Of a stretch of DNA of 64,000 nt, positions 26,665 to 54,072 are shown piece after piece; the stretch's first letter is position 1; every line of letters begins with the position of its first letter. The notes under the pieces were generated by a model, which saw nothing but the letters and a program-made list of their open reading frames with translations, ran no database searches and was not told where the DNA came from. Location of the stretch: the IMG/VR virus record IMGVR_UViG_3300028797_000128, positions 42,088 to 106,087 of that record. One strand, given 5' to 3'. The position numbers and the translations under genes were made by a program. This stretch comes from a virus. Taxonomy: Duplodnaviria; Caudoviricetes.

Positions 26665-27501
26665 ATGGCTATAAATAGTATTGCTATTAAGCAGATTATC
26701 GGCGCATGGGCTTTCGACTCAGCAGAAAATGTTAAGTGGATGTGTTCTCAAGTTGAAAATCTGCAAATCACTCAGGACGGTGAGGTTACAGAAAAGCGTG
26801 ATGCTAATGGTTCTGTTATCTTTACAATTGACAGAAATAAGTCTTGTCAGATAACATTCGATTCATCTGTTTTAGATCTTAGCCTCGTGGCTGCGTTGAA
26901 TGGTACAGAGAAGTTTACGGCAGACAGTGACCACGCAATGCGTGTTCCTTATATTGACAGATTTGTGTTAAAGGCAGCAGACGTAAGCGCAGGTTATGTT
27001 ACTCTGACTAAAACTCCTGAAGCAGAGGTTGGCGGTGCATATAAAATTTCATTCCACACTCTGACTGAGGATAACTCTCTTGAGGATAACTATGAACAGG
27101 TATCTTCAGCAGCCACATCAACTAAGTTCTACTATGATTCTACAAATCATAGAGTTTACTTCCCTACAGATGCTACAATATTTAAAGCTGGCACAAAGAT
27201 AGAGATTATTTACGAATACTCTGTAACTGCCGGTGTTAAGGTTGTTAATGCTGCCGATAAGTTCCCTGATGCTGCAAAGGTAAGATTCCTTGTTCTTGCT
27301 GTGTCGTTATGTGACCAGTCAAGGGTTAAGGCTTTGTGGATTACCGCTAAAAATTCTAAACCACAGACAGGAAATACTATCGGTTTTAACTTAGACGATA
27401 CAATTTCGGTAACTTTAGACCTCGCCTACTCATATTGTGATCAGTCTAAGGATTTCTACGAAATCACAGTCGCAGACGAGACTTTCGTTCCTTCTTGGTG
27501 A
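26665..27501 (+). CDS. Major tail tube protein
   Basis: Beta-rich, 278 aa, position upstream of chaperone and tape measure genes. Confidence 0.7.
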   Translation: MAINSIAIKQIIGAWAFDSAENVKWMCSQVENLQITQDGEVTEKRDANGSVIFTIDRNKSCQITFDSSVLDLSLVAALNGTEKFTADSDHAMRVPYIDRFVLKAADVSAGYVTLTKTPEAEVGGAYKISFHTLTEDNSLEDNYEQVSSAATSTKFYYDSTNHRVYFPTDATIFKAGTKIEIIYEYSVTAGVKVVNAADKFPDAAKVRFLVLAVSLCDQSRVKALWITAKNSKPQTGNTIGFNLDDTISVTLDLAYSYCDQSKDFYEITVADETFVPSW

Positions 27502-40306: not shown

Positions 40307-40950
40307 TGGCAGATGTATTAGAAGAATATGTGACACAAGTCATTGATAAAAAAATGCAGAATAGCGATTATCTCATTGCTATTCCTTCAAAAGTTATGCA
40401 AGTTTTATCAAATGGAATGTATGTGGTACAACTTATCTCAAACGGTTCAGAATATTGCGTTCCGAATTGGAGTGGCGCTGACCTTGAAGTCGGAGATAAT
40501 GTTCATCTTTATTATAAAGGCAAAATATTGTCAGATAGAACTGCATACATTGGCGCAGCATTTCATCAAAACAATCATCTTGAATTTATTGTTGGTAATT
40601 CGCAGACAGGCAGAATTGTACCTGATTCTGCTCCTGCGACTTTTGCAACTATTAATTTCACCGCAACAATCAAGACAAATATTTTTGTGTGTTTCAATGC
40701 AAATCTCATAACTAATTCTATGGGTTCAAATACTGTGACGGTTTATTTAGATAATGTTCCGCACACATATCAACATGATCTCAATTTATCAAGAGGTTGG
40801 AAGTATACACAGAACTTCACGCTTCCGTTTGAAGCTGATGCAGGTGAACACACGGTTTTAGTCAAGATAAATGGTAGTGGAGATGTGACTTATGCGGCAG
40901 TTTATGCATATGTTTTCGGTCAAGGAATAAAGGAGGTGGAGAATGGATAA
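40306..40950 (+). CDS. Tail tip protein (OB-fold-like N-terminus)
   Basis: Synteny; LEVGDNV. Confidence 0.5.
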   Translation: MADVLEEYVTQVIDKKMQNSDYLIAIPSKVMQVLSNGMYVVQLISNGSEYCVPNWSGADLEVGDNVHLYYKGKILSDRTAYIGAAFHQNNHLEFIVGNSQTGRIVPDSAPATFATINFTATIKTNIFVCFNANLITNSMGSNTVTVYLDNVPHTYQHDLNLSRGWKYTQNFTLPFEADAGEHTVLVKINGSGDVTYAAVYAYVFGQGIKEVENG

Positions 40951-41845
40951 GTTTTTTATAAGAGAAATTGCTGCGGTTTGGGCGTTTGATAAGCAGAATG
41001 AAGCTGTGTGGAAATGCACCAATATTGGCAAATTGAAGATTACTCAGGACGGTGAAACAATCCGCAAAAAAGATTCTCAGGGCGCAACAATTTTTAAAAT
41101 GGACACGGCAAAAAGTGCAAGTATAAGTTTTGAGGTGAATTACTGGGACTTCAATATTTTATCAATGATTTCGGGAGCAGATAAACGCACTCTTGATGGC
41201 ACTGATAATCCGTATATAGTAGAACCTATAAATGTTCCTTATGCACAGGACATCGTACTCACTGTTGAAGATATTGAAAACGGATATGTGGAACTCGATG
41301 AAACACCACGCAGAAACGAATATGGAGTATGTGAGATGTCTATGTTTCGCACTGGTAAGGGAGATACAATATTGCAAAATTATAAACAGGGATTATTCGC
41401 TGACGAAACTCATTTTGCCGTTGAAGGGAATAAACTTATGTTTCCTACTTCTCTATCGGACGAGGATAGATTTGAAATAGTTTATGAATTTAATTCTGCG
41501 GTTGGCGTGGAGTTGATTAATTCTGCTGATAAAGTCCCTGAAACATGGAAGGTCAGAATCCTTATGCTTGTATCTCCGATTTGCAATACAGACATTGTAT
41601 CTGCGGTATGGCTAACGGCTAACAACGCAACTCCTGATATGAGCGTTTCGCTTGATTTAGGCACAGAGGATAATATTCCTGTGAGCCTTGAATTGGGTTA
41701 CAGCATTTGTGACGACAAGAAGGAATTGTATAAAATCGTTTCCGCATATGCTGTCAGCGATGAAAGCTATGGTATACCGTTGCGCACAAATGACAGAAAT
41801 ACAGTATATACTTACGATCAAGATCCGGTAAGGACGATATCGTAA
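40943..41845 (+). CDS. Tail-tube protein paralogue
   Basis: Aligns by eye along its length with 26665-27501. Confidence 0.75.
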   Translation: MDKFFIREIAAVWAFDKQNEAVWKCTNIGKLKITQDGETIRKKDSQGATIFKMDTAKSASISFEVNYWDFNILSMISGADKRTLDGTDNPYIVEPINVPYAQDIVLTVEDIENGYVELDETPRRNEYGVCEMSMFRTGKGDTILQNYKQGLFADETHFAVEGNKLMFPTSLSDEDRFEIVYEFNSAVGVELINSADKVPETWKVRILMLVSPICNTDIVSAVWLTANNATPDMSVSLDLGTEDNIPVSLELGYSICDDKKELYKIVSAYAVSDESYGIPLRTNDRNTVYTYDQDPVRTIS

Positions 41846-41861: not shown

Positions 41862-44456
41862 ATGGGAAAATTAAGTAGAAACTATCCCACATCTGAAGCG
41901 GTTGAAGCTGCGTTAAACAGAGCCAATAAAGCTGAAGCTGATATAAACAACTTACAGGCACAAATAGATGAGATAGTTATTTCATCTTCTGCTGAAGCTA
42001 TTGTTGCGCCTGAAGTTGCACAAGCAAGAGTCGGTGAAGATGGTACTGAATATACAACTCTGAAAGATAGATTGGATTCCGAAGTCAAATTGATTCGTGA
42101 TGATTTACTCAGCACAGTTGTTGAAGATATTTATGTGTTGGGCGACATTACAGACGGAGAATATTATGACATTGATGGAGAAGTTCAGAGTAGTCAATAT
42201 TGGAGCACCTGCACAATTAATGTGTTACCATATAAGAGAATAATTTATTCGGGTGTTACACATACCAGCGACAATTTGCGTTCAGTATTCATAAACAAGA
42301 ACAATCGTGTTATCGCTACATTCCCAATGGAAACAGGGCAAAATGTCATAGACGTACCGAAAGATGCGAGTGTAGTTGTGTTTTCTATTCACACGGCTGA
42401 AAAAGATGATTTTGTAAGTCTGGGAATTAATCGCAATGTCTTTATTGATGATTCCCAAATTGTTGAACACAATAATTATCTTGATTTATCAAATTATTCG
42501 GGCAATGGAATTACCATAGTAAGGAATGAAGATGACACATTAACGATTAATGGAGCGGCATCTCTTGTAACAGATGTGACAATTTGCACATTACAGGCAG
42601 GAACATATACGGCTCTTTACAAATTTGTAAGTGGCTCAACAACTTCTACTTCAGATATTTCTGTTAGAGTTAATGATGAAAGATGGGTAAATAACCATAC
42701 AAAAGTGTCAACCGTATCTCTTACTGGCATTACAGAAGTTAAATTGCGTATCTCAGGTGGGGCAGTTTTAAATAATGCCAAGGTTGAAGTTGTTATTAAC
42801 AAGGGAACAGAGGTTGATGAAGAAGCAAACTGGAGGTATACGGCATTGGATCAAAAAGCGAGAGAGATGTCAACAAAAAACGCAAGTGACATTTCTGATA
42901 ATAGCGATCTCATATCCATTATATCTGAAGAATCTTCAAATATGTTCTACGTGACAACAGTTCCTCAAACGCTTGGTGGTATTACAATTACGACCGACAC
43001 TAAAGGAAGAATTGTGATTAACGGTACAAGTTCTGGAAGTGTTAAGATACCGTTAATGGGCGCAGTAAGTGCAAGTAACACGAATTTGCCAGCGGGAACA
43101 TATACAGCAAAGATAGAGAGAGTTTCAGGTACGATTTCAACAGCAGGAAATATTAGTCTGAGATATGGTGATGTAAGTTCTGGTTCAGGTACAAGATGGG
43201 TAATTAGCACAACGCCAATCGAAACAGATACTTTTGAGAGTGACCAAAGCGTAATTTTGTATATTTCACCTAATACGGAATTTCATGATGCAACTTATGA
43301 GTTGCAAATTGAACAAGGAGAAACGGTTGGTAATTTCTATCCTTATGGGTTTATTACAGGCTATGACAAAATTGCAAGAGACAAAATCGCTGAAATAGAA
43401 GCCGAAATAACAGACGTTCCAGAATTGAGTCTTACCGATTTTGAGTATGAACTTATAGGCGGAGGCTTAAATGCTCTTAACTCTCTTTATGATGTGACAG
43501 GCAAATTATTTAATGTGAGCTATGTTACAGACACCCATATCGACATTTATCAGAATACACGACACGGGGAAGATTCTTTTAAATTATTCAATTCAATAAC
43601 AAACTACTGTGATATCTCTGTGCATATGGGTGATGTTGTACAATCAACAGGACGTACACGTGCTGAGGCTTTGCATAATTTTGAGGTTGCAGATTATCTT
43701 ATGAGAGATGCTAAAAGTTGTGTGATTTGTAGAGGTAATCACGATACCAACGTAAGAGCGGGATATCCAATAAATACAGCAGTCTTTAACACAATGGAAA
43801 TGCGCAGACGACCTGCTAATTTTATATCAAATCCAAATGATACTAATAAAATGTACGGATATATGGATTTTGCAGAGTATAAGTTGCGTGTGTATTTCTT
43901 AGACCCATACGATGATCTCACTCTTGCGCATTCAGGTTCTTCTTCTGCTCCGTATAATGACGTTGCCATAATAACCGAAAACCAACTTGACTGGCTTTTT
44001 GTGCAAAATGCCGTTACGGACACAACATGGACTGCCCTCATATTCTCTCATAACTCAACAGCTTCTACTTTAAAATACCAAGAAGCCGACTCGAAGAATA
44101 GCTCGTTTAGAACCAAACTGGCTACAATGATAGGCAATGGAATCCCCGTTGTCCTTTGTCATGGCAACAATCATAAAGATGCATGGCAATCTGTTGTTTG
44201 CGGAAATTCGGTTGGTAATATTTTAGATATTACATTTGAAAATGGTTTCTACAACTTTAATGATTCAGATGATATCGCAAAAGGATATTATTTTGATGGA
44301 CAAGGAAATCTGATCCCTAAAGATTTATATTGCGTAGGCTTTATTAGTATTGATACAACAAATCACATAATTTACGATACCAGAATTGGTAGAGGCAGTA
44401 GTAGAACTTGGCACTACGGATTATCCGATTCGGATATTTATGAAATTTCAAACTAA
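41862..44456 (+). CDS. Tail-associated protein: N-terminal anchor, two repeated beta domains, C-terminal metallophosphoesterase
   Basis: EVAQARV...LKDRLD; duplicated GIT...INGxxS...AGTYTA...RWV; TDTH, MGD, GNHD, FSH, HGNNH. Confidence 0.75.
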   Translation: MGKLSRNYPTSEAVEAALNRANKAEADINNLQAQIDEIVISSSAEAIVAPEVAQARVGEDGTEYTTLKDRLDSEVKLIRDDLLSTVVEDIYVLGDITDGEYYDIDGEVQSSQYWSTCTINVLPYKRIIYSGVTHTSDNLRSVFINKNNRVIATFPMETGQNVIDVPKDASVVVFSIHTAEKDDFVSLGINRNVFIDDSQIVEHNNYLDLSNYSGNGITIVRNEDDTLTINGAASLVTDVTICTLQAGTYTALYKFVSGSTTSTSDISVRVNDERWVNNHTKVSTVSLTGITEVKLRISGGAVLNNAKVEVVINKGTEVDEEANWRYTALDQKAREMSTKNASDISDNSDLISIISEESSNMFYVTTVPQTLGGITITTDTKGRIVINGTSSGSVKIPLMGAVSASNTNLPAGTYTAKIERVSGTISTAGNISLRYGDVSSGSGTRWVISTTPIETDTFESDQSVILYISPNTEFHDATYELQIEQGETVGNFYPYGFITGYDKIARDKIAEIEAEITDVPELSLTDFEYELIGGGLNALNSLYDVTGKLFNVSYVTDTHIDIYQNTRHGEDSFKLFNSITNYCDISVHMGDVVQSTGRTRAEALHNFEVADYLMRDAKSCVICRGNHDTNVRAGYPINTAVFNTMEMRRRPANFISNPNDTNKMYGYMDFAEYKLRVYFLDPYDDLTLAHSGSSSAPYNDVAIITENQLDWLFVQNAVTDTTWTALIFSHNSTASTLKYQEADSKNSSFRTKLATMIGNGIPVVLCHGNNHKDAWQSVVCGNSVGNILDITFENGFYNFNDSDDIAKGYYFDGQGNLIPKDLYCVGFISIDTTNHIIYDTRIGRGSSRTWHYGLSDSDIYEISN

Positions 44457-45226: not shown

Positions 45227-46033
45227 ATGAATTTTAAGAGATACGTAGAGAGTAGCGGCACATGGGTTGACTCTCACTATATTCGTGGAACATCAACCGA
45301 CACGATAACTCTACCAACAACCATATACGGCGACGGCACAAATGCAAGTTTGACTATCAAGGGTAACACCGTCCAGAACGGAACGCCGTCACCGAGTAAT
45401 CCTGTATCAGTGGACGGAGTGGGAGAATTAGAAACATCGGGAGAACACGCAGGAGATTATAAAATCCCGATTTTAAACGGACAGACCACAACGCCTGTAT
45501 ATTTGGGAAGTGTGGAGAGTGAGAGGAAGATTAAGAAGTTAGTCTTTGATGGCACTGAAGGTTGGACAAAAAGCAGAAACGATGATACTGCATTTTTTAA
45601 ATTGCAGTTGTCAGATTATAAGCTTCAAACCGTTGCGTTTTGTTCTCATTTTGAATATGCAAATGTTACGCAAAGCGGAACAACATTAGGGTTTTATATT
45701 GTGCTTGGTTCAGGCATGATAAGAATACGTCCAGAAAATGTTGCAACAACAAGCCTTGAATCATTTTTATCATTCCTTTCAACGCAGTATTCTAATGGCA
45801 CAGCTGTAACAATTTATTACGTATTGGACACGCCCGAAACTATAATCTCTAATGAGCCTTTATATAAAATTGATAACTATTCTGATTCCATCTCGACTTC
45901 AATCCCCACGACAGACGAAGCAAACACACTCTCAGTTGGCACTACGGTACAGCCGAGTGAGGTAACTGTCACCTTTAAAGGGTGGCATCCTGTTGCGGAT
46001 GTCCATGAACACACAAACGGTGCATGGACATAA
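45227..46033 (+). CDS. Putative receptor-binding/tail protein
   Basis: KGNTVQNGTPSPSNPV; VTIYYVLDTP motif. Confidence 0.6.
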   Translation: MNFKRYVESSGTWVDSHYIRGTSTDTITLPTTIYGDGTNASLTIKGNTVQNGTPSPSNPVSVDGVGELETSGEHAGDYKIPILNGQTTTPVYLGSVESERKIKKLVFDGTEGWTKSRNDDTAFFKLQLSDYKLQTVAFCSHFEYANVTQSGTTLGFYIVLGSGMIRIRPENVATTSLESFLSFLSTQYSNGTAVTIYYVLDTPETIISNEPLYKIDNYSDSISTSIPTTDEANTLSVGTTVQPSEVTVTFKGWHPVADVHEHTNGAWT

Positions 46034-46113
46034 CTGAATAAAAAAAAGGTAATTTCAACTAAGGCGTGGTCATTAATTTGGTCACGCCTCTAATTATGAA
46101 AGGAAGTATGCCG

Positions 46114-46632
46114 ATGCACGAAATATTCAAGAAATTATCAAATCATATGGTTGGTGCTATGATGATTCACACTCAGCTTACGGAATTGTTTAATTTCATT
46201 GACCTTGAAGCTGACGCTAAACGACAGAAGAAGCAACTGCACGAAGAATCGGACGGTCTTTTGAAGTTAGAGAAGTATGCTACACAGCATCATCACATAC
46301 TGATAACGTCAGATAATCCTCCACAGGTAGACATATTGAATCTTGATATATTAGAACGTCCAAACGATAAATTATCGCCAGATGATAAAATTCATCTCAT
46401 TCAGTACGCCCTTAAAGAGTGGATTGAGTGGGAAAAGAAAAGCAAAGTAATATATGAGGACTCCTATCACAACCTTGTGGATATGTCAGAAATAGCCGCC
46501 GCAGACTTTGTTTTGCAATACGTCAAGGACGTTGACAAAGAACTGAGAGATGCAGAACTGCTTTACAGAGTTAGGGATGCTATTGATTGGGACTTGGCAA
46601 CTATTTACGATGAACAAGCAAGAAAGACGTAA
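46114..46632 (+). CDS. Ferritin-like four-helix-bundle protein
   Basis: Helical; His/Glu pattern (MMIH, HEE, EWE, DVDKE). Confidence 0.5.
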   Translation: MHEIFKKLSNHMVGAMMIHTQLTELFNFIDLEADAKRQKKQLHEESDGLLKLEKYATQHHHILITSDNPPQVDILNLDILERPNDKLSPDDKIHLIQYALKEWIEWEKKSKVIYEDSYHNLVDMSEIAAADFVLQYVKDVDKELRDAELLYRVRDAIDWDLATIYDEQARKT

Positions 46633-46641
46633 GGAGATTTT

Positions 46642-47025
46642 ATGTATGTAAACTTCAATGAAAACCCTCGTGGAAACTACTACGCTGGCGACTGTGTGAT
46701 AAGAGCCATTAATATTGTCACAGGAATATCGTGGGACGAAATCTACACTACTCTTTGTGCTGAAGGTTTTTACTTAGGTGATTGGGGCAATACAAACGCA
46801 TCGTGGGACTGGTATCTTAGAAGTTTGGGCTTTAAGAGATATATCTGCCCTAATGACTGTCCGTTTTGCTATTCACTTGTAGATTTTGCAAACGATCACC
46901 CGACTGGCAAATACATAGTGGCGACTGGCACTCATGCCGTAGCAGTAGTTAATGGTGATTACTATGACGCTTTCGACAGTGGTCATGTAACACCGATATA
47001 TTATTACACGAAAGAAGGTGAGTAA
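46642..47025 (+). CDS. Putative papain/C39-like cysteine peptidase fold protein
   Basis: GDCVIRA...HAVAV...YDAFDS (Cys-His-Asp order). Confidence 0.45.
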   Translation: MYVNFNENPRGNYYAGDCVIRAINIVTGISWDEIYTTLCAEGFYLGDWGNTNASWDWYLRSLGFKRYICPNDCPFCYSLVDFANDHPTGKYIVATGTHAVAVVNGDYYDAFDSGHVTPIYYYTKEGE

Positions 47026-47418
47026 ATGGCTTATGGTTATATCCCAAACAATTACAACCTTTATGGGCAACAATTTCAGTCTGCGCAGCAATATATGCAA
47101 CCGCAAACTAACAACATAGTTCACGTTCAAAATGAGCAACAGGCTCGTGCGTGGACGGTTGCTCCAAACAGTTCTGTGATGTTCATTGATGATAGTAGCC
47201 CACATTGTTATACAAAGACAATGGGAATGTCACAATTAGAGCCCCCCGTATTCAAGTGCTTCAAACTTGTAGAGGTGGAGACTTCACAGCAACAGGTTCA
47301 AGAACCGCAACAAAATGCTGATTTATCTGCCTTTATGACAAAAGAAGAATTTGAGCCATATAAGGCGATAATAGAAGAAATGCAGAAAATAGCAAAGGAG
47401 CTGAATGGAAATGAGTAA
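47026..47418 (+). CDS. Hypothetical protein with Q/N/Y-rich N-terminus
   Basis: SD; composition. Confidence 0.75.
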   Translation: MAYGYIPNNYNLYGQQFQSAQQYMQPQTNNIVHVQNEQQARAWTVAPNSSVMFIDDSSPHCYTKTMGMSQLEPPVFKCFKLVEVETSQQQVQEPQQNADLSAFMTKEEFEPYKAIIEEMQKIAKELNGNE

Positions 47419-47623
47419 TCCTTTGAATGTAGGGAGACAGCAACAGCCTGATATGAACGCATTATATCAGCAGTTTGCGCAGAATCCTATGCAATATCTT
47501 ACGGGAATGAATATCCCAAAGGAGCTTACAACTCCACAACAAATTGTACAATACTTAGCCGATAATGGCAAAATCCCACCAATGCTTCAACAGCGTGTAA
47601 ACGCAATGCTTGGCAGGAAGTGA
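47411..47623 (+). CDS. Small Q/M/P-rich helical protein
   Basis: NPMQ and PQQIVQYL motifs. Confidence 0.75.
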   Translation: MSNPLNVGRQQQPDMNALYQQFAQNPMQYLTGMNIPKELTTPQQIVQYLADNGKIPPMLQQRVNAMLGRK

Positions 47624-47773
47624 GTTATAGTGTAAAGCTATGGCTCACAATGAGTTATAGTCTTTACCTTTCTAATGGTATTAAGGCAATTCCGCCTTGA
47701 TATATAACGCACCGTTCACACATAAGGATGTGAACGCTCACCCCTAAAAGTTATGGGGAGAAAGGAGGGCTTT

Positions 47774-48730
47774 ATGGCTCTTACAGAAAACGGAATGGAC
47801 ACAACAATGCTTGTATCTCCTACTGGTGGCTACGGCGGTGGCAACGGACTCTTTGGTGGCGGAGACTCATGGCTCGGCATACTGTTCCTCATCGCACTCT
47901 GTAACGGTGGCTTTGGCTTTGGCGGCTTTGGCGGCGGTTATGGCGCAATGATGGGAATGGGCATGGCAGATGGCTTCGGTCTTTATCCGTGGCTCAACAA
48001 CAGCCAGAACATCAACGATGGATTCCGTGACCAGATGCTTAACTCCACAGTACAGGGCATCCAGAACTCTATCACAAGCGGATTTGGTGACGTACAGCTT
48101 GGCATTGCAGGTGTAAATCAGAACATCTGTCAGACTGGCAACGGCATTACAAGTGCAATCAATCAGGGATTTGCAAGCACAAATCTCGGTATGTGTCAGG
48201 GCTTCAATGGCGTGAATAATTCTATCTTTGGAGCACAGACTGCAATTTCTCAGCAGCTTAATGGTAATGAGATAGCAAATCTTGAAAGAAGTTTTGCTTC
48301 ACAGACAGCTAATTCTCAGGGCTTAAACGCTATTCAGTCACAGCTTGCTAACTGCTGTTGTGAGAATCGTGCAGCTACCGCTGACGTAAAGTACACACTC
48401 GCACAGGAAGGATGTGCTACAAGAACCGCTGACGCTCAGAATACCAATGCGCTTCTCACAGCCTTTAATAGTGGTATTCAGAGCATTAAGGATCAGCTTT
48501 GCTCAGACAAGATTGAGAGCAAGAACGACATCATTGCACAGCTTCGCTCAGAGCTTATGTTCGCTCGTGGACAGGCTTCACAGGATGTTCAGACAGGGGT
48601 TATCCAGCTTGGTCAGAGAAATCTCGCTAACGAAATAGAGCAGTATGTTGCTCCAAAGGCTATCCCCGCTTACATGGTACAGAACCCTAATTGCTGTGCC
48701 AACGCTTGCGGTTGCAACGGCTCATTTTAA
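47774..48730 (+). CDS. Gly-rich, membrane-segment, coiled-coil, Cys-cluster protein
   Basis: AAGGAGG SD; GGYGGG...WLGILFLIALC...GGFGFGG; repeats; NCCCEN; C-terminal CCANACGC. Confidence 0.85.
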   Translation: MALTENGMDTTMLVSPTGGYGGGNGLFGGGDSWLGILFLIALCNGGFGFGGFGGGYGAMMGMGMADGFGLYPWLNNSQNINDGFRDQMLNSTVQGIQNSITSGFGDVQLGIAGVNQNICQTGNGITSAINQGFASTNLGMCQGFNGVNNSIFGAQTAISQQLNGNEIANLERSFASQTANSQGLNAIQSQLANCCCENRAATADVKYTLAQEGCATRTADAQNTNALLTAFNSGIQSIKDQLCSDKIESKNDIIAQLRSELMFARGQASQDVQTGVIQLGQRNLANEIEQYVAPKAIPAYMVQNPNCCANACGCNGSF

Positions 48731-48748
48731 TGATGGGCGGTGATAACT

Positions 48749-49237
48749 ATGGCAGCAGAATACAGCAGTAATGCTACACAGGTAGTACAGGCTACCGCAC
48801 CTGTAATCTTTACGGAATCCCCCGTTCCTTGCAACGCAGGACTTGTATTCCATAGAGATGAAAGCGGAATCTTCTTACTCGCAAACAATGCACCTACTTT
48901 TAAAGGTTGCTATGAGTGCAGACGAGTATATGAAACACTTTACAACGTGGAGTTCCACGGCAATATCAGTTTGCCCGAAGAACCCGCAGGAACAGTTGAA
49001 CCTATCAGCCTTGCAATTGCAATAGGCGGTGAAACTGATCCGAGTTCCATTATGACAGTAACCGTACCTCTGGTTTCAGACGTATCGGGCGATAATGTCG
49101 GAGCTTCAATAATCGTGGCAGTACCAAGTCTTTGTGGCTGTCAGAGTGTTTCAGTACGCAACATAAGCACACAGGCAATTAATGTGATGAACGCTAATAT
49201 TATCTTTGAATATATTGGCACTCGCAGGATTAGATGA
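48749..49237 (+). CDS. Beta-sandwich protein, possibly BclA-CTD/C1q-like
   Basis: Alternating beta pattern YNVEFHGNI...ISLAIAIGG...VSVRNIS. Confidence 0.5.
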   Translation: MAAEYSSNATQVVQATAPVIFTESPVPCNAGLVFHRDESGIFLLANNAPTFKGCYECRRVYETLYNVEFHGNISLPEEPAGTVEPISLAIAIGGETDPSSIMTVTVPLVSDVSGDNVGASIIVAVPSLCGCQSVSVRNISTQAINVMNANIIFEYIGTRRIR

Positions 49238-49251
49238 AAGGTAGGTAGAAC

Positions 49252-49686
49252 ATGGATAAGAAGTTAGATACCCTGTATGACCTTTGCGAAACAGTGTCAA
49301 AGGAACTTGAAAGTGCAAACGAGAAGATTAATGGTGCAGGTGGTGAACTGAGTGCTGGCGATTTGGAATACCTTGACAAACTCACCCACACAATGAAGTC
49401 TCTCAAGACCACTATCGCTATGATAGAGGCAGAGGACGGACACAGTGGCTATTATATGGGCGGCAGATATTACTACGACAATGATATGTCTATGGAAGGC
49501 AGAGGCGGTCGTTCTAACGCTCGTGGTGGTCGTAGTTCTTATGCAAGACGAGGCTCATACGCTCGTGGCTACAGCAGAGATGATGCGAAAGAGGACTTCA
49601 TCGACGAGATAGAAGAACTCGTGGAGAAAGCTCCTGATGAGCGTACTCGCAAGAAATTTGAAAGATTCCTTTCCGAAATGAAGTAA
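49252..49686 (+). CDS. Helical protein with RGG/SYAR low-complexity repeat
   Basis: GRGGRSNARGGRSSYARRGSYARGYSR. Confidence 0.8.
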   Translation: MDKKLDTLYDLCETVSKELESANEKINGAGGELSAGDLEYLDKLTHTMKSLKTTIAMIEAEDGHSGYYMGGRYYYDNDMSMEGRGGRSNARGGRSSYARRGSYARGYSRDDAKEDFIDEIEELVEKAPDERTRKKFERFLSEMK

Positions 49687-49800
49687 GCTAAGGCTCTTTC
49701 GGGTGGTGGTGTAACAGCCATCACCCCTCAAATATGGAAATTCAGGTGGCAAGATAATGTCGCCTTTAATATATAAAAACTAAATGAAAGGAGTGATCGC

Positions 49801-49998
49801 ATGAAATTAATACTCCAAAAATTAGCAAAACTCATTGATGTAAAAACGTTTGTGACTTTCTCACTAACGGCAACATTTGTGTATCTATGTGTGTTAGACA
49901 AAGTTGAACCTCAAATATTTTTGACAATCTACAGTTCAGTATTGGGTTTTTATTTTGGCACACAGCATGAAAAAAAGAATAGTGATGGAAAGGAGTGA
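49801..49998 (+). CDS. Holin-like protein
   Basis: Two TM segments, FYFGTQ, basic C-terminus; upstream of the endolysin. Confidence 0.75.
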   Translation: MKLILQKLAKLIDVKTFVTFSLTATFVYLCVLDKVEPQIFLTIYSSVLGFYFGTQHEKKNSDGKE

Positions 49999-50002
49999 AA
50001 GA

Positions 50003-50752
50003 ATGGCAGGTAAAGCACAAGATTTAACTGGGTTAGTGTTTGGGAGATGGAAAGTGTTGGAAAGAGCTGAAAATCGTTATTATTCAAATGGTAGGCAAGC
50101 CGTATATTGGAAATGCCAGTGTCAATGTAGCAACGGAACAATAAGAGATGTATTGGCTACAACATTAAAAACCGGCAAGTCAGTTTCGTGTGGCTGTTAT
50201 CAAAAGGAAATCGCAACACAAACAATAGCCGAAGTCCGCAAAAAATATAATGCTTATGTTGTTCATGATGATTATGTCATTTTATATACTTATAAAAATG
50301 AACCATTTTTCGTAGACATAGAAGATTTTGGACGGATTCATAAATACTGCTGGCATAAAAATGATAACGGATACTTGGTTACAACAATCAATCATACTAC
50401 AGTTTACTTGCATAGAATGATTATGAATGCTCCACCTAATATTGATGTTGACCATGAACACGGCTCAAGCACAAAGCATGACAATCGCAAAAGTAATCTT
50501 CGCCTTGCAACGATATCTCAAAATGGCATGAATAAAGAAAAACAATCCAATAATACATCGGGTTATGTTGGTGTTTCATGGAGTAAAAAATCTAATAAAT
50601 GGAGATCGCGCATCTGTATCAATAAAAAGGAAATATTTTTAGGGGAATATGTCAATATCCAAGATGCTATTGATGCGAGGCGCAAGGCAGAAGAAAAATA
50701 TTTTGGCGAATTTGGGTATAAACAAAGCAGAGGAAAAGGACGAGAGGAGTGA
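50003..50752 (+). CDS. HNH homing endonuclease with AP2-like domain
   Basis: DLTG..FG, SCGC, LHRMI...VDH...DNRKSNLR...N, NTSGYVGVSW. Confidence 0.9.
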   Translation: MAGKAQDLTGLVFGRWKVLERAENRYYSNGRQAVYWKCQCQCSNGTIRDVLATTLKTGKSVSCGCYQKEIATQTIAEVRKKYNAYVVHDDYVILYTYKNEPFFVDIEDFGRIHKYCWHKNDNGYLVTTINHTTVYLHRMIMNAPPNIDVDHEHGSSTKHDNRKSNLRLATISQNGMNKEKQSNNTSGYVGVSWSKKSNKWRSRICINKKEIFLGEYVNIQDAIDARRKAEEKYFGEFGYKQSRGKGREE

Positions 50753-50758
50753 AAACAT

Positions 50759-51727
50759 ATGGCATTTTTAAACCCCGATAAAACTTATGACGCAAACGGT
50801 GTCACGGTAAAAGAGTATTTACTTACCAATCACAATCCAAACGGAATTGCGATGCCTACGGCGGCATTACCCACAAAGCCCATAGGCATTACAGTTCATA
50901 ATACTGATTGGATTGCAACGGCAAATGGAACTCACCCATCAGAACAATATTCTCGTGCTACCGTGAATGGCAACATGAATGATGTACGTGTGCATTACTA
51001 TGTGGATAATGTATGCGCTTGGCAGATGTTGCCTCTCACTCTTTCAGGTTGGCACGCGGCAGACGGTGGCGGAGATGGTAACCGTAAAACAATATCAATA
51101 GAGTGCATTATGTCGTCTGCTTATAATGACACCGATAAGAAGTCTGAGGATAACTGTGCAAAGTTAGTAGCCTATCTTTTGCACAAATATGGTCTTAATG
51201 TAGACGATCATCTTTATACGCATACTCACTGGCTGAATGTAAGGGATGGCATCAAAGGTTCAAATGATTATCTTAATACTCGCAAACATCCTTATAAGTG
51301 GTGTCCTTTATATATACTCCCTCACTGGGCTGCATTTAAAGAAAAAGTTAGGACATATCTTAATGCTCTCAATGGGGCAAGCACCTCACCCGCTGGCTAC
51401 ACTAAGACTCTTGATAAAGGAACACCAATCTATAAAGTTATAGGCGAGAATAAAACCGGTGAAATCACAACGACCACAAAATACACTATTGTTGAAGAAA
51501 AGATTGTAGGGAATATTAAATACGGCAAATTAAAATCTGGTGCTGGCTGGGTTGAACTTGAAAAGATTGAACGCAAATTTGACATTAACAATTCTAATGA
51601 TGTAAAAGAGCTACAAACAGCCCTTAACGAGCATGGCTTCAATTGTGGCGATATAGACGGTATTTTAGGTTCAAAGTCTTACAACGCTATGTTTCAAGCT
51701 TTGTGTAAGTTATGGCTTGTAGAGTAA
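50759..51727 (+). CDS. Endolysin, N-acetylmuramoyl-L-alanine amidase (Amidase_2) with C-terminal cell-wall binding domains
   Basis: ITVHNT, VHYYVD, WHAADG, SIE, HTHW, CP; GKLKSGAGW; LQTALN...DGILG. Confidence 0.9.
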   Translation: MAFLNPDKTYDANGVTVKEYLLTNHNPNGIAMPTAALPTKPIGITVHNTDWIATANGTHPSEQYSRATVNGNMNDVRVHYYVDNVCAWQMLPLTLSGWHAADGGGDGNRKTISIECIMSSAYNDTDKKSEDNCAKLVAYLLHKYGLNVDDHLYTHTHWLNVRDGIKGSNDYLNTRKHPYKWCPLYILPHWAAFKEKVRTYLNALNGASTSPAGYTKTLDKGTPIYKVIGENKTGEITTTTKYTIVEEKIVGNIKYGKLKSGAGWVELEKIERKFDINNSNDVKELQTALNEHGFNCGDIDGILGSKSYNAMFQALCKLWLVE

Positions 51728-51752
51728 ATATCATTAAGAAAGGAGGCATTTC

Positions 51753-51974
51753 ATGTTGACTCAGGAAGATTACGCTTTACTGGATAATCGCTACGTGCGA
51801 AAAGACGACTGTAATGAGAGACATACCATTGAGACAAACAAGATTACTGAATTAACTGTGTCACAGGCTAAGATGAACACACAATTGGGACTTCTTATTA
51901 AAATCAGCTCCGTAACTCTTGGCACAATCATTACAGCTATTATTGGCGCAGTAATGGGAATGATACTGAAGTAG
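51753..51974 (+). CDS. XhlA-like holin/membrane protein
   Basis: Coiled coil followed by a C-terminal TM helix. Confidence 0.6.
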   Translation: MLTQEDYALLDNRYVRKDDCNERHTIETNKITELTVSQAKMNTQLGLLIKISSVTLGTIITAIIGAVMGMILK

Positions 51975-51987
51975 AAGGTGATTTCTC

Positions 51988-52344
51988 ATGGATTGTAGAC
52001 AATGTGAAGATAGAAATTGGAGAAATCATTATATAGTAGCACAAGAAAGGTTTGACAAAGTAGTAGCAAGACTAACAATTGGCACAATAATTGCTTTCAC
52101 AATTGCAGTCCTATGTCTCTTTGCCACTATTATAACAATATGGCGAGTGCAGAAATTTATCAACGAATTTGAATATGTAGAAGAAACTGAGATACAAATA
52201 GAACAGGATTGTAGAGGTGAAAACACCGTTATATTAAGCGATGATTCGGAGGTAAGAAATGGGGCAGAAGTACACAGAGAAAAAGAAGAGTTATTGGCGG
52301 AAGAAAGCAACAACAAAAACAACACCATTACTGTCTACAAATGA
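51988..52344 (+). CDS. Single-pass membrane protein
   Basis: TM IGTIIAFTIAVLCLFATIITIW; acidic tail. Confidence 0.65.
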   Translation: MDCRQCEDRNWRNHYIVAQERFDKVVARLTIGTIIAFTIAVLCLFATIITIWRVQKFINEFEYVEETEIQIEQDCRGENTVILSDDSEVRNGAEVHREKEELLAEESNNKNNTITVYK

Positions 52345-52399
52345 GAATGAAAAAGAAAGTTTATGGCAGAAGATAAAGAAGATATTCACCAAAAAATAA
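52259..52399 (+). CDS. Small basic peptide (46 aa, not in the ORF track) overlapping the previous gene
   Basis: GGAGGT SD before ATG 52259; MGQKYTEKKK...SLWQKIKKIFTKK. Confidence 0.55.
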   Translation: MGQKYTEKKKSYWRKKATTKTTPLLSTNENEKESLWQKIKKIFTKK

Positions 52400-52401
52400 T
52401 T

Positions 52402-52450
52402 ATAGGGTGCATATTAGGTCTAATTGACTTGGTATGCACCCTATTTTTTT
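52402..52450 (+). terminator. Terminator ending the late operon
   Basis: atagggtgcata...tatgcaccctat followed by a T tract. Confidence 0.8.
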
Positions 52451-52499
52451 GTCTATAAATAATCACTCGTGACTTCTTCAAGTGTCTATTTATAGGCAA
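52449..52499. other. Candidate attP site for the serine integrase
   Basis: About 50 bp imperfect inverted repeat (14/17 match) next to the integrase 3' end at the strand switch. Confidence 0.5.
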
Positions 52500-52554
52500 A
52501 AGCTACCACCAGCCGTTTCATTTTGTACGGTTCGGAGAAGCGGAGCGTACAACT

Positions 52555-54072
52555 TTACACGCGCCACACGATTTCGATATGGTCTTGAAAAACCAAAATT
52601 TTGTCGATTAATAGGTCTATAACAGCTTTTTTGTCATCAAAAGAAAGCTCGCTCCATTTGCTTACTGCGTTTGATATTCGTGACTGATTTAACTGTTTTG
52701 TTTCTTGTTCTGACTGGATAGTTTGTATCTCGGATTCGATCTTTCGTTTCTGAGAATCCAAGTCGGCTATCTTCTTTTCTATATAACTTATGGCTACTTG
52801 ATTAGATGTGGCTGCGAGAGTGTTTACTATGTTTTCAATCTCTGTCGAAATTTTTTCTCTTTGTAGGTTTAGGCTATCAATTCTGCTATCCACAAGAGTT
52901 GTCTTTTCGCATCTTTTAATTGTTAATGAATCTAACTTGTTTTTGATATGCTCTACGATATCGGCTTCAAATTCATTAGCTTTTAAAGATGGGAGTTTTA
53001 CGGGGCAACAATGCATGAAAGAATATCCAGAATCTACAAAGTAACGCACATCTTCACTTCTGCGTCTTTGTGAAATTCTGACTACAAAGGCGTAGCCACA
53101 ATGTCCGCATTTTACTTTGCCAGCAAGGAATGAGTTCTTGGCTTTACAGGTTTTGATTTGATGATTTGCCAAGAGTTTCTTGCGGCAGATGAGCCATGTT
53201 GTTGAATCTATTATGGGTTGATGTGGTGCTACAACAATATTGTGATTTGATAAATCCCATGTTTTCCGATTATGGTTTTCGCCTTGAAAAAGATATAAGC
53301 TTGTCTCTCCTGTAAAATCGTCAATTGGGTTGATTATGTTGCAACCTTGAGTTTTAAAGAAATTATATGTATCTCTGTTCGCATAAGTATAAATCGGATT
53401 GCGCATTACCTCTGAGATTCGAGATGTTTGCCATGTGTAACCGTCGCGTTTGGTATTAAGCCCTCTTTTGGTTAGTTCTCTTAATACGTCGCCCAAAGTG
53501 ACTGATGGCTTTGAGTAAAGTTCATAAATAAATCTTATAACCTCTGCTTCTTCAGGCTGTTGCTCGTACATTGATGTTTTGACACCGTTTATTATTATAG
53601 GCACTTTTATATAGCCATATGGTATCTTGCCACCCATATAGAAGCCTTTCTTGCTTCGGCTTGCATAAGCATCTGCCACACGTTGTTGTATTGTTTCGCG
53701 TTCAAGCTGCGCAAATACAATGCAGATATTTAGCATTGCTCTGCCCATAGGCGATGATGTGTCAAAGTGCTCGGTTGCCGACACAAAGGCGACATTCATC
53801 TTTTGAAACAAGTCCATCATTCGGGAAAAATCAAGGATTGAACGGCTTATACGGTCAAGCTTGTAGACAATAACCTTGTTAATCTTTTTGCTCTTAATGT
53901 CCTCTATCATGCGCTGATATTCTGGGCGATCTGTATTCTTGCCTGAGAAGCCGTTATCGGAGTAAACGATACTTTCTTCACCTTTGGCTTCGTACTGACA
54001 ATGTTCGATTTGAGACTCAATTGAGATAGAGTCCTCTCTAAAAACAGATTTTCTTGCATATATTGCAATCAT
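52555..54072 (-). CDS. Large serine recombinase (integrase)
   Basis: IYARKS, FSG..TDRP, KLDRISR, recombinase domain, CGHCG Zn ribbon, coiled coil. Confidence 0.95.
   Translation of the reverse strand: MIAIYARKSVFREDSISIESQIEHCQYEAKGEESIVYSDNGFSGKNTDRPEYQRMIEDIKSKKINKVIVYKLDRISRSILDFSRMMDLFQKMNVAFVSATEHFDTSSPMGRAMLNICIVFAQLERETIQQRVADAYASRSKKGFYMGGKIPYGYIKVPIIINGVKTSMYEQQPEEAEVIRFIYELYSKPSVTLGDVLRELTKRGLNTKRDGYTWQTSRISEVMRNPIYTYANRDTYNFFKTQGCNIINPIDDFTGETSLYLFQGENHNRKTWDLSNHNIVVAPHQPIIDSTTWLICRKKLLANHQIKTCKAKNSFLAGKVKCGHCGYAFVVRISQRRRSEDVRYFVDSGYSFMHCCPVKLPSLKANEFEADIVEHIKNKLDSLTIKRCEKTTLVDSRIDSLNLQREKISTEIENIVNTLAATSNQVAISYIEKKIADLDSQKRKIESEIQTIQSEQETKQLNQSRISNAVSKWSELSFDDKKAVIDLLIDKILVFQDHIEIVWRV

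Follow-up and report, generated by a model that had tools for sequence, protein, structure and literature searches.

A conserved gene cassette in a phage late operon

The DNA analysed here, which we call the window, is a stretch of 64,000 nucleotides: the right-hand 64 kb of the 106-kb virus record IMGVR_UViG_3300028797_000128 in IMG/VR (positions 42,088 to 106,087). Its plus strand carries the late operon of a long-tailed phage, with genes for the large terminase, portal, capsid, tube, a 2267-aa tape measure and tail fibres. The operon ends at a strong terminator (52402-52444), beyond which a serine integrase is encoded on the minus strand. Seven genes, g1 to g7, separate the last tail-fibre gene (45227-46033) from a holin-like gene (49801-49998), and six of them (g2-g7) recur together in fixed order in many other phages. 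Two of the six, a long stalk protein (g5) and a jelly-roll head protein (g6), are central to the interpretation developed below. The genes and the features that accompany them are as follows.

46062-46089, plus strand: upstream hairpin, 11-bp stem, -15.3 kcal/mol, z -5.3 against shuffled sequences, no U-run after it
46111-46632, plus strand: g1, 173-aa helical protein, an optional add-on; alternative GTG start at 46066
46642-47025, plus strand: g2, 127 aa, putative papain-like Cys-His-Asp enzyme; phrog_3754
47026-47418, plus strand: g3, Q/P/Y-rich N-terminus, small conserved beta domain, C-terminal helix; phrog_21718
47405-47623, plus strand: g4, 72-aa small helical protein, Q/M/P-rich
47624-47773, plus strand: structured leader before g5, with the consensus ribosome-binding site AAGGAGG at its end
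47774-48730, plus strand: g5, 318-aa stalk protein; alternative ATG start at 47753; phrog_16490
48749-49237, plus strand: g6, 162-aa stand-alone TNF/C1q-like jelly roll; phrog_20016
49252-49686, plus strand: g7, N-terminal helical domain, R/G/S/Y-rich disordered middle, C-terminal helical domain
49701-49726, plus strand: downstream hairpin, 10-bp stem, -18.3 kcal/mol, z -4.5 against shuffled sequences, no U-run after it

A first-pass annotation, made from the sequence alone, had described seven co-oriented, tightly packed open reading frames (ORFs) bracketed by hairpins, and this description holds. The ORFs lie at the coordinates it gave, the compositions it noted for the products of g3, g4 and g7 are confirmed, and both hairpins are genuine, being far more stable than their shuffled counterparts. 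With no U-run behind either of them, they do not qualify as canonical terminators. No Rfam family was found within 45500-52600. Similar DNA was absent from the phage collection at blastn sensitivity, and plasmid and chromid DNA gave a single partial match to the region.

Conservation of a six-gene block

The comparison set comprised 83 loci, namely 80 viral loci fetched with a g5 alignment and three annotated phages (Butyrivibrio phage Ceridwen and two faecal phages), and their ORFs were searched with iterated profiles of each window protein. Matches were found for g5 in 81 loci, g3 in 74, g6 in 70, g2 in 61, g4 in 60 (after profile iteration) and g7 in 55. g1 was matched in one locus, and the genes for tail fibre and holin in two or three. 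In 43 of the 83 viral loci the genes run g2-g3-g4-g5-g6-g7, the remainder being mostly partial or cut by contig ends, and they do so also in 19 of 27 genome loci (mostly Clostridia metagenome-assembled genomes, together with Eubacterium ruminantium). Identity of g5 among loci that keep the cassette falls as low as ~31%. When all ORFs of the loci were clustered without supervision, the widely shared families were exactly g2-g7.

The conserved unit is therefore six genes (46642-49686), not the seven of the first-pass annotation, and g1 lies outside it, recurring in a few close relatives only. The broader claim of that annotation, that the genes form a unit, stands after the co-occurrence check was run across phages and genomes: g2-g7 keep a fixed order despite otherwise unrelated virion genes. 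The further proposals for g1 fared less well. It recurs only in locus L085, in L111 (the window's own record) and as a C-terminal domain in L002 (9140-10147; BLASTP E 3e-13), in a protein that follows the head gene of a variant cassette. It has no sequence match in Pfam, NCBIfam, PHROG or the PDB, and paired ExxH motifs were not seen. The proposed ferritin-like identity thus finds no match, and a role as metal or redox helper loses its basis, because g1 is not conserved with the block and carries no ferritin signal.

The g5 family has more than 7800 homologues at 90% clustering, none of them named, and the g6 family at least 1180 clusters at 50% identity; g6 is present in 7 of 399 evenly sampled Clostridia species genomes (~2%). 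Among the cassette products g6 is also the best conserved, with a mean pairwise identity of 0.52. None of the seven proteins had a significant match in Pfam, NCBIfam or PADLOC (no PADLOC defence model matched g1-g7 at E <= 0.1), and PHROG matches of the cassette proteins were to families of unknown function only. Ceridwen is the sole isolate with the cassette in the phage collection, and all cassette genes are annotated as hypothetical there, including those for the g5 and g6 homologues (QHJ73768 and QHJ73769). For the six proteins we found no name, Pfam family or paper, and searches of the literature on DUF7841 and on BclA-like proteins with prophage and Lachnospiraceae found no account of the cassette.

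Carriers and mobility of the cassette

How closely is the cassette bound to the virion genes around it? Of 29 near-complete carrier records, 28-29 lack any homologue (E <= 0.001) of the capsid, tube and portal proteins of the window, unlike the cassette proteins, which are 30-86% identical across carriers. Among phages with homologous tail-fibre genes, the cassette stands before the lysis genes (window, L084, L085) or after them (L004); few close relatives of the window's tail-fibre gene were found. The cassette follows a lysin and precedes an integrase in most loci, with an amidase-family lysin upstream in at least 19 viral loci and an integrase just downstream in 19. A recombinase is encoded by 25 of 30 near-complete carriers, and five have neither integrase nor recombinase. 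The hosts are mostly monoderm Clostridia, and the carriers include Ceridwen, a phage of Butyrivibrio fibrisolvens, and a contig of E. ruminantium; both species are non-spore-formers. These comparisons show that the cassette moves among many gut and rumen Clostridia phages independently of the virion module.

In about 40 of the 83 viral loci, a small sigma-region-4-like regulator (~70 aa, in two families) is encoded directly upstream of g2; examples of the arrangement are L092 (4432-4728), L086, L090, L094-L098 and L101. In L092, a strong terminator (13-bp stem and T-run) lies between the regulator and g2, 6 nt before g2. The window has neither such a regulator nor such a terminator, and g1 occupies the regulator's place.

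These features bear on the possibility of a lysogenic-conversion or superinfection-exclusion module, in which membrane stalks expressed from a prophage would block DNA entry or alter the envelope of the lysogen. The usual position between lysin and integrase is a classic slot for accessory cargo, and a dedicated regulator family in many loci, a terminator in at least one and the frequency of recombinases among carriers would all suit expression from a prophage. In Gram-positive hosts, the exclusion proteins that are known target DNA injection by siphophages, and the lack of a contractile sheath in all examined carriers (see below) fits this. The window's own cassette, however, lies inside the late operon without a regulator or clear promoter of its own, the capsid-like codon use of g5 described below fits a product made late and in abundance, an integrase is missing from some carriers, and no PADLOC defence model was matched. 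We consider this explanation distinctly improbable.

The cassette is itself a target of insertion. In L048 (3724-7764), L074 (4805-7791) and L091 (2832-5992), 3-4 kb of other DNA is inserted exactly between g4 and g5, and g5 is split into two ORFs in L099 (5709-6019; gap ~310 nt), L104 and L110; the g4-g5 junction and g5 look like hot spots for insertions or introns. Endonuclease genes related to one found among the window's lysis genes (49955-50752) occur inside the cassette elsewhere, between g6 and g7 or between g3 and g4 (L001 9118-9981, L028 9307-10098, L049 9343-10197, L034 5174-5815).

The stalk protein g5

The g5 protein consists of an acidic N-tail, a hydrophobic helix (WLGILFLIAL) within Gly/aromatic sequence, a long helix, and a Pro/aromatic and Cys-rich tail. 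A single-chain AlphaFold2 (AF2) model makes residues 84-292 one unbroken helix of ~209 residues, or ~31 nm, flanked by a disordered N-terminal Gly/aromatic region with one short hydrophobic helix and by a disordered Cys-rich tail. The hydrophobic period in the N-terminal half of the helix is 3.67. Across 79 homologues, segment lengths differ in 11-residue steps (55/66/77/88/99/110, 59/70/81/92/103 and 18/29/40). The cysteines of the long helix, C194-C196 (CCC), C214 and C243, keep fixed spacings; that between C194 and C214 is 20 in 78 of the 79 sequences. The 11-residue periodicity and the length quanta argue for a hendecad coiled-coil stalk whose length is under selection. The features recorded for this protein in the first-pass annotation, including the 11-residue repeats, the Gly/aromatic region around one hydrophobic helix, the CCC motif and the Cys-rich tail, are all present, and the repeats are borne out by both the period and the family length changes in quanta of 11.

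Besides the capsid gene itself, g5 is the sole gene of the window with a capsid-like pattern of synonymous codon use, as had been suspected by eye. Across complete cassettes, we compared the NNC fraction, defined as the share of C-ending codons among NNC/NNT synonymous pairs. g5 ranks first in 25 of 46 loci, with a mean of 0.52 compared with 0.40-0.47 for the other cassette genes. A high share of C-ending two-fold codons is a mark of high expression in low-GC Firmicutes. Together with the AF2 helix and the period of 3.67, the codon use supports the earlier picture of an abundant, long coiled coil.

Expression of g5 may also be adjusted by the leader between g4 and g5 (47624-47773). Its minimum free energy is -63.3 kcal/mol, compared with -36.0 kcal/mol when the sequence is shuffled (z -6.8). 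The segment GCTATGGCTCAC is common to two hairpins that cannot form together: one at 47620-47648, overlapping the stop codon of g4, and one at 47637-47661, after which comes a weak T-rich run. These alternatives may constitute an attenuation-like switch that sets the level of g5-g7. Structure (z below -2) was found in 16 of 52 g4-g5 spacers, the window's included. The leader has no Rfam match, and an exact-pairing search for such alternative hairpins in other g4-g5 spacers was too strict to recover even the window's own, which contain G-U pairs.

On which side of the membrane would the stalk lie? Among the cassette proteins, only g5 has an N-terminal hydrophobic segment, and neither a signal peptide nor a lipobox was found in the others. 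The N-tail of g5 carries on average 0.55 K/R and 3.0 D/E residues, a composition that speaks less for an exported stalk than for an anchor with its N-terminus out and C-terminus in, or for a protein that does not enter the membrane. An N-tail almost free of Lys and Arg, and the lack of signal peptides in the other proteins, lead us to place the stalk in the cytoplasm. The N-terminal motif of g5 showed no relation to the presence of g2. A candidate identity of the g5 N-terminus as a YjcZ/tiny_TM_bacill sporulation protein was rejected, TIGR01732 giving no match in the phage record at E <= 10, nor in the NCBIfam scan.

The outline of g5, an N-terminal transmembrane helix followed by a coiled coil, resembles by sequence those of the i-spanin Rz and of phi29 p16.7. 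Rz has intermolecular Cys links and is located in a lysis cassette, and g5 likewise has conserved cysteines. It is conceivable that the cassette is an accessory of lysis or egress, in which a membrane-active, spanin- or fusogen-like g5 with a Gly-rich hydrophobic peptide, long coiled coil and Cys locks, primed by a g2 protease, would help to disrupt a membrane or outer layer or keep released virions off debris. The cassette adjoins the lysis genes in the window and has an amidase-family lysin upstream in many loci, and the five near-complete carriers with neither integrase nor recombinase make a role in the lytic cycle plausible. Compared with spanins, however, g5 is 2-3 times longer, the cassette offers no lipoprotein or signal sequence for an outer partner, and the mostly monoderm hosts do not suit such a role; no DNA-binding domain was detected in g5. 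Besides the cassette, the window encodes a holin-like protein, an amidase and two small membrane proteins, capsid-level production would be unusual for a lysis protein, and six genes are many for the task. On balance we regard this explanation as improbable.

The head protein g6 and its coupling to g5

The AF2 model of g6 (predicted local distance difference test score 88.4) is a ten-strand TNF/C1q jelly roll. Its best structural matches are exosporium proteins: VIA gave Z 17.3 for the C-terminal domain of F-BclA (9h38; root-mean-square deviation 1.8 A over 124 residues), 16.5 for the C-terminal domain of BclA (1wck) and 15.1 over 138 residues for ExsFA (7r1m). Foldseek (E 1.7e-7) included 8d02 and 9h3d among its matches. 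Eukaryotic C1q/TNF domains and several phage receptor-binding heads rank below the exosporium proteins. A beta-sandwich of C1q/BclA type, proposed earlier by inspection, is thus borne out by AF2, Foldseek and VIA. By sequence, g6 has no Pfam match at E <= 0.1, none of 66 family members matches BclA_C (PF18573) at E <= 0.05, and a profile search of PDB sequences returned nothing at E <= 10. A Cys pair, C129/C131, is conserved. The best 150 representatives are all stand-alone proteins of 100-196 aa, and g6 has no GXY repeats.

The tail of g5 and the presence of g6 go together. A two-by-two comparison of the Cys-rich g5 tail with g6 gave 69/6/0/4 (Fisher p 1.4e-4). Every Cys-rich-tailed g5 precedes g6 or, in six loci, an unrelated small Cys-rich protein, g6'. 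Where g6 is cleanly missing and g7 comes straight after g5 (four loci), the g5 tail is without Cys. These comparisons support a functional tie between the Cys-rich tail and g6. The g6' proteins (123-139 aa, starting MACK..C..C) occupy the g6 slot in L002 (8716-9135), L015 (8778-9182), L066 (8929-9300), L075, L078 and L082, and have no Pfam family; that g6' might be a diverged g6 was rejected (hhalign probability 0.3%). No covariation was seen between the Cys pattern of g6 and the two types of g5 tail. A Rosetta-stone fusion of g5 and g6 was also sought, with none among the best 150 representatives, and a search for longer proteins, a weak negative, gave P0121 only, a metagenomic protein discussed below.

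A comparable head and stalk are found in the exosporium and F-ENA appendages of the Bacillus cereus group, where the trimeric head ExsF/BxpB captures the long, likewise trimeric stalk protein BclA or F-Anchor by a Pro-rich peptide at its terminus (PMC12357932). ExsFA/BxpB and g6 are alike in TNF/C1q fold, in standing alone and in their size of ~160 residues. Like BclA or F-Anchor, g5 is a long stalk protein; its Pro/aromatic, Cys-rich terminal tail is lost together with the head in the cassette, and stalk length varies by repeat number in both systems. In contrast to BclA, the g5 stalk is an alpha-helical hendecad coiled coil rather than collagen, and the candidate docking peptide is C-terminal, not N-terminal. 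The BclA-type fibre combines exosporium leader, GXY stalk and head in one chain; the cassette has none of this, and g6 is separate. Unlike exosporium systems, moreover, g5 has a hydrophobic, membrane-type anchor, and the cassette is phage-borne and also occurs in phages of non-sporulating hosts.

A second point of comparison is the S-Ena endospore appendage, whose subunits are disulfide cross-linked through N-terminal Cys connector peptides. The cassette is similar in combining a flexible, Cys-clustered terminal peptide with a beta-sandwich that has a conserved Cys pair. It differs in that no cassette protein matches the Pfam family DUF3992, g6 is TNF-like rather than an Ena jelly roll, and there is no sign of a helical pilus.

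These likenesses raise the question, already posed in the first-pass annotation, of whether the cassette modifies the host spore surface as an exosporium-like nap, or forms a protective, occlusion-like matrix around virions. Beyond the structural matches of g6, the cassette proteins are rich in Cys, Tyr, Gly and Gln, like spore-coat proteins, and the restriction of an export-type hydrophobic segment to g5 resembles the situation of mother-cell-assembled proteins freed by lysis. Set against this, none of the cassette proteins belongs by sequence to the BclA_C, Ena or YjcZ families, collagen-like repeats and an exosporium leader are lacking, and there is no sign of any matrix. A spore-specific role is unlikely because the cassette is found in non-sporulating hosts, with the B. 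fibrisolvens phage and the E. ruminantium contig among its carriers, and we give the explanation as a whole very little credence.

The remaining cassette genes

Five residues of g2, D17, C18, R21, H98 and D109, are invariant in 60 homologues (PHROG E 6e-22). The catalytic triad of C39 peptidases consists of a Cys near 18, a His near 98 and an Asp near 109-112, and g2 is alike in its size of ~130 residues and in Cys/His/Asp spacing; for g2, however, no ABC transporter and no double-glycine leader substrate were identified. Weak language-model neighbours of g2 carry DUF261 or Peptidase_C39, one cluster with Peptidase_C39 on 20% of its members. Assignment to C39 was rejected when hhalign against an alignment of 10 C39 domains gave a probability of 0.15% (E 0.39). 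None of the 60 members has a Pfam match, and a PDB profile search found no peptidase, only chance matches to carbazole oxygenase. Of the peptidase-like character first ascribed to g2, the invariant Cys18/His98/Asp109 stands, and membership in a known peptidase family is not borne out by sequence.

Judged by their sequences, g3, g4 and g7 each combine small conserved domains with Q/P/Y- or R/G/S/Y-rich low-complexity sequence. A protein-atlas search with g3 gave nothing informative. In a short form of the cassette, an analogue, g4b, replaces g4, and the N-terminal domain of g7 is homologous to that of the g7 analogue in this form (hhalign probability 90%). A variant at the g7 position in L066 (9316-9954) and L082 (9262-9900) carries Pfam DUF7841 (E 7e-26); the window's g7 has no DUF7841 match, and no paper on DUF7841 was found. 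Neither the protease activity of g2 nor the nucleic-acid binding of g7 proposed in the first-pass annotation gained support.

A model for the cassette

We propose that g2-g7 form a mobile accessory cassette whose products assemble into a stalk with a head, a reading to which we give an even chance. For its role we favour the infected or lysogenic cell, either its envelope or its cytoplasm, over the virion. In this model g5 chains would associate in parallel, probably as trimers, and the one hydrophobic helix, flanked by Trp, would hold g5 in the cytoplasmic membrane, with the acidic N-tail outside and the stalk in the cytoplasm. The Pro/aromatic, Cys-rich tails of g5 may then dock onto a g6 trimer and be locked to its conserved Cys pair by disulfides or bound metal, a step proposed by comparison with the capture of the BclA or F-Anchor leader by ExsF/BxpB and with the Cys-peptide cross-links of Ena. 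g2 could process or cross-link a component, and g3, g4 and g7 might serve as low-complexity adaptors or matrix proteins. Given the position of the cassette within the late operon, between tail-fibre genes and holin, we further propose that the assembly is made late and in quantity, and released at lysis.

Why place it in the cell rather than on the virion? The carriers' virion modules are unrelated, the cassette usually stands after the lysin with its own regulator, and the head is conserved, which together argue against a specifically docked virion part and against a receptor-binding role. The conservation of g6 in particular makes a host-range knob unlikely, since receptor-binding heads show the opposite.

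Several observations nevertheless weigh against this proposal. The structure predictions are of single chains of g5 and g6. The hydrophobic helix of g5 is short (~13-16 residues) and has no positive charges on either flank, so that its topology is weakly determined. The co-loss that ties g5 to g6 amounts to ~2-3 independent events, and g2 is a putative enzyme. A TNF-like knob on a coiled-coil or collagen stalk is a classic viral attachment design, and the receptor-binding heads of PRD1 (P5), a cyanophage, TM4 and lactococcal phages match g6 at Z 10-13. P0121 (394 aa, from a metagenome) fuses a g6-like C-terminal domain to a tail-protein-like N-terminus. Finally, a contractile-sheath gene (PF04984) was found in none of 48 carrier records (G001-G045 and W01-W03), 29 of them near-complete. 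Carriage may be confined to phages that lack contractile tails, and the absence of a sheath could link it to long, non-contractile tails and hence to a virion or injection-related role.

The leading alternative is an accessory virion fibre, in which a g5 coiled-coil trimer, fixed to the head, neck or tail through its N-terminus, would carry g6 as the knob at its tip and bind glycans of host or mucus reversibly, with g2 as maturation protease. T4 fibritin, reovirus sigma1, adenovirus fibre and PRD1 P5 all have the long trimeric stalk and C-terminal jelly-roll knob proposed here for g5 and g6, the side tail fibres of lambda follow the plan of such an attached fibre, and fibritin and collagen/C1q fibres are among the viral fold matches. 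The window's cassette follows the tail-fibre genes directly, inside the late operon, g5 has the codon use of a capsid gene, and the fused head of P0121 and the missing sheath point the same way; accessory fibres may, besides, be dispensable. The cassette departs from known stalk-and-knob fibres, however, in encoding stalk and knob separately, in the knob being its best conserved part, in moving between phages with unrelated virion genes and in a g5 N-terminus that resembles a membrane anchor; a Trp-flanked hydrophobic helix would be odd in a virion. No common docking partner is evident, the carriers' capsid, portal and tube being dissimilar to the window's. The mostly post-lysin position, the regulator in about 40 loci and the terminator before g2 in L092 add to these difficulties. 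The fibre role suggested in the first-pass annotation is weakened by this mobility and by the conservation of the head, and we now hold it to be unlikely, though deserving of serious attention.

Returning to the stalk-and-head assembly in the cell, we may speculate on its fullest form. The cassette would then encode a phage-built cellular structure of a kind so far undescribed, a dense, redox- or metal-locked nap of hendecad stalks 25-34 nm long, anchored in the membrane and capped by TNF-like trimers, with height adjustable in 11-residue steps, maturation by its own Cys enzyme and a low-complexity matrix. Such a portable counterpart of the exosporium nap might act as a membrane-active spike, as a scaffold in the late cell or in the protection of lysis products. 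In this complete form we consider the idea rather doubtful. A membrane-anchored stalk-and-head layer, if true, would represent a novel virus-encoded structure in the Clostridia of gut and rumen; a virion fibre would instead be a widely portable attachment module. Either way, assembly of the BclA/ExsF type, in which a head captures a stalk, would extend beyond spores. The block remains intact in phages with unrelated virion genes and includes one gene codon-optimised to the level of the capsid gene, which argues for strong selection on a function absent from current lists of phage biology.

By eye, the N-terminal 250 residues of P0121 resemble a siphophage tail protein of the distal tail/endopeptidase type.

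Neighbouring genes

Downstream of the cassette and outside it lie the lysis genes, with the endonuclease gene among them.

49801-49998, plus strand: holin-like ORF
49955-50752, plus strand: HNH/AP2-type endonuclease ORF, overlapping the 3' end of the holin ORF
50759-51727, plus strand: amidase
51753-51974 and 51988-52344, plus strand: two small membrane proteins
52402-52444: terminator after the lysis genes

The second of the small membrane proteins (118 aa, 51988-52344) belongs to a family with a VPY.VHEG.MAR.ER motif and one transmembrane helix that is encoded after the lysin in 21 other loci, and it is probably a lysis accessory protein. Further upstream in the window, the products of 26665-27501 and 40943-41845 both match phrog_2729, a virion structural protein, in keeping with a proposed second tube-like gene, diverged from the first, in the tail-tip module.

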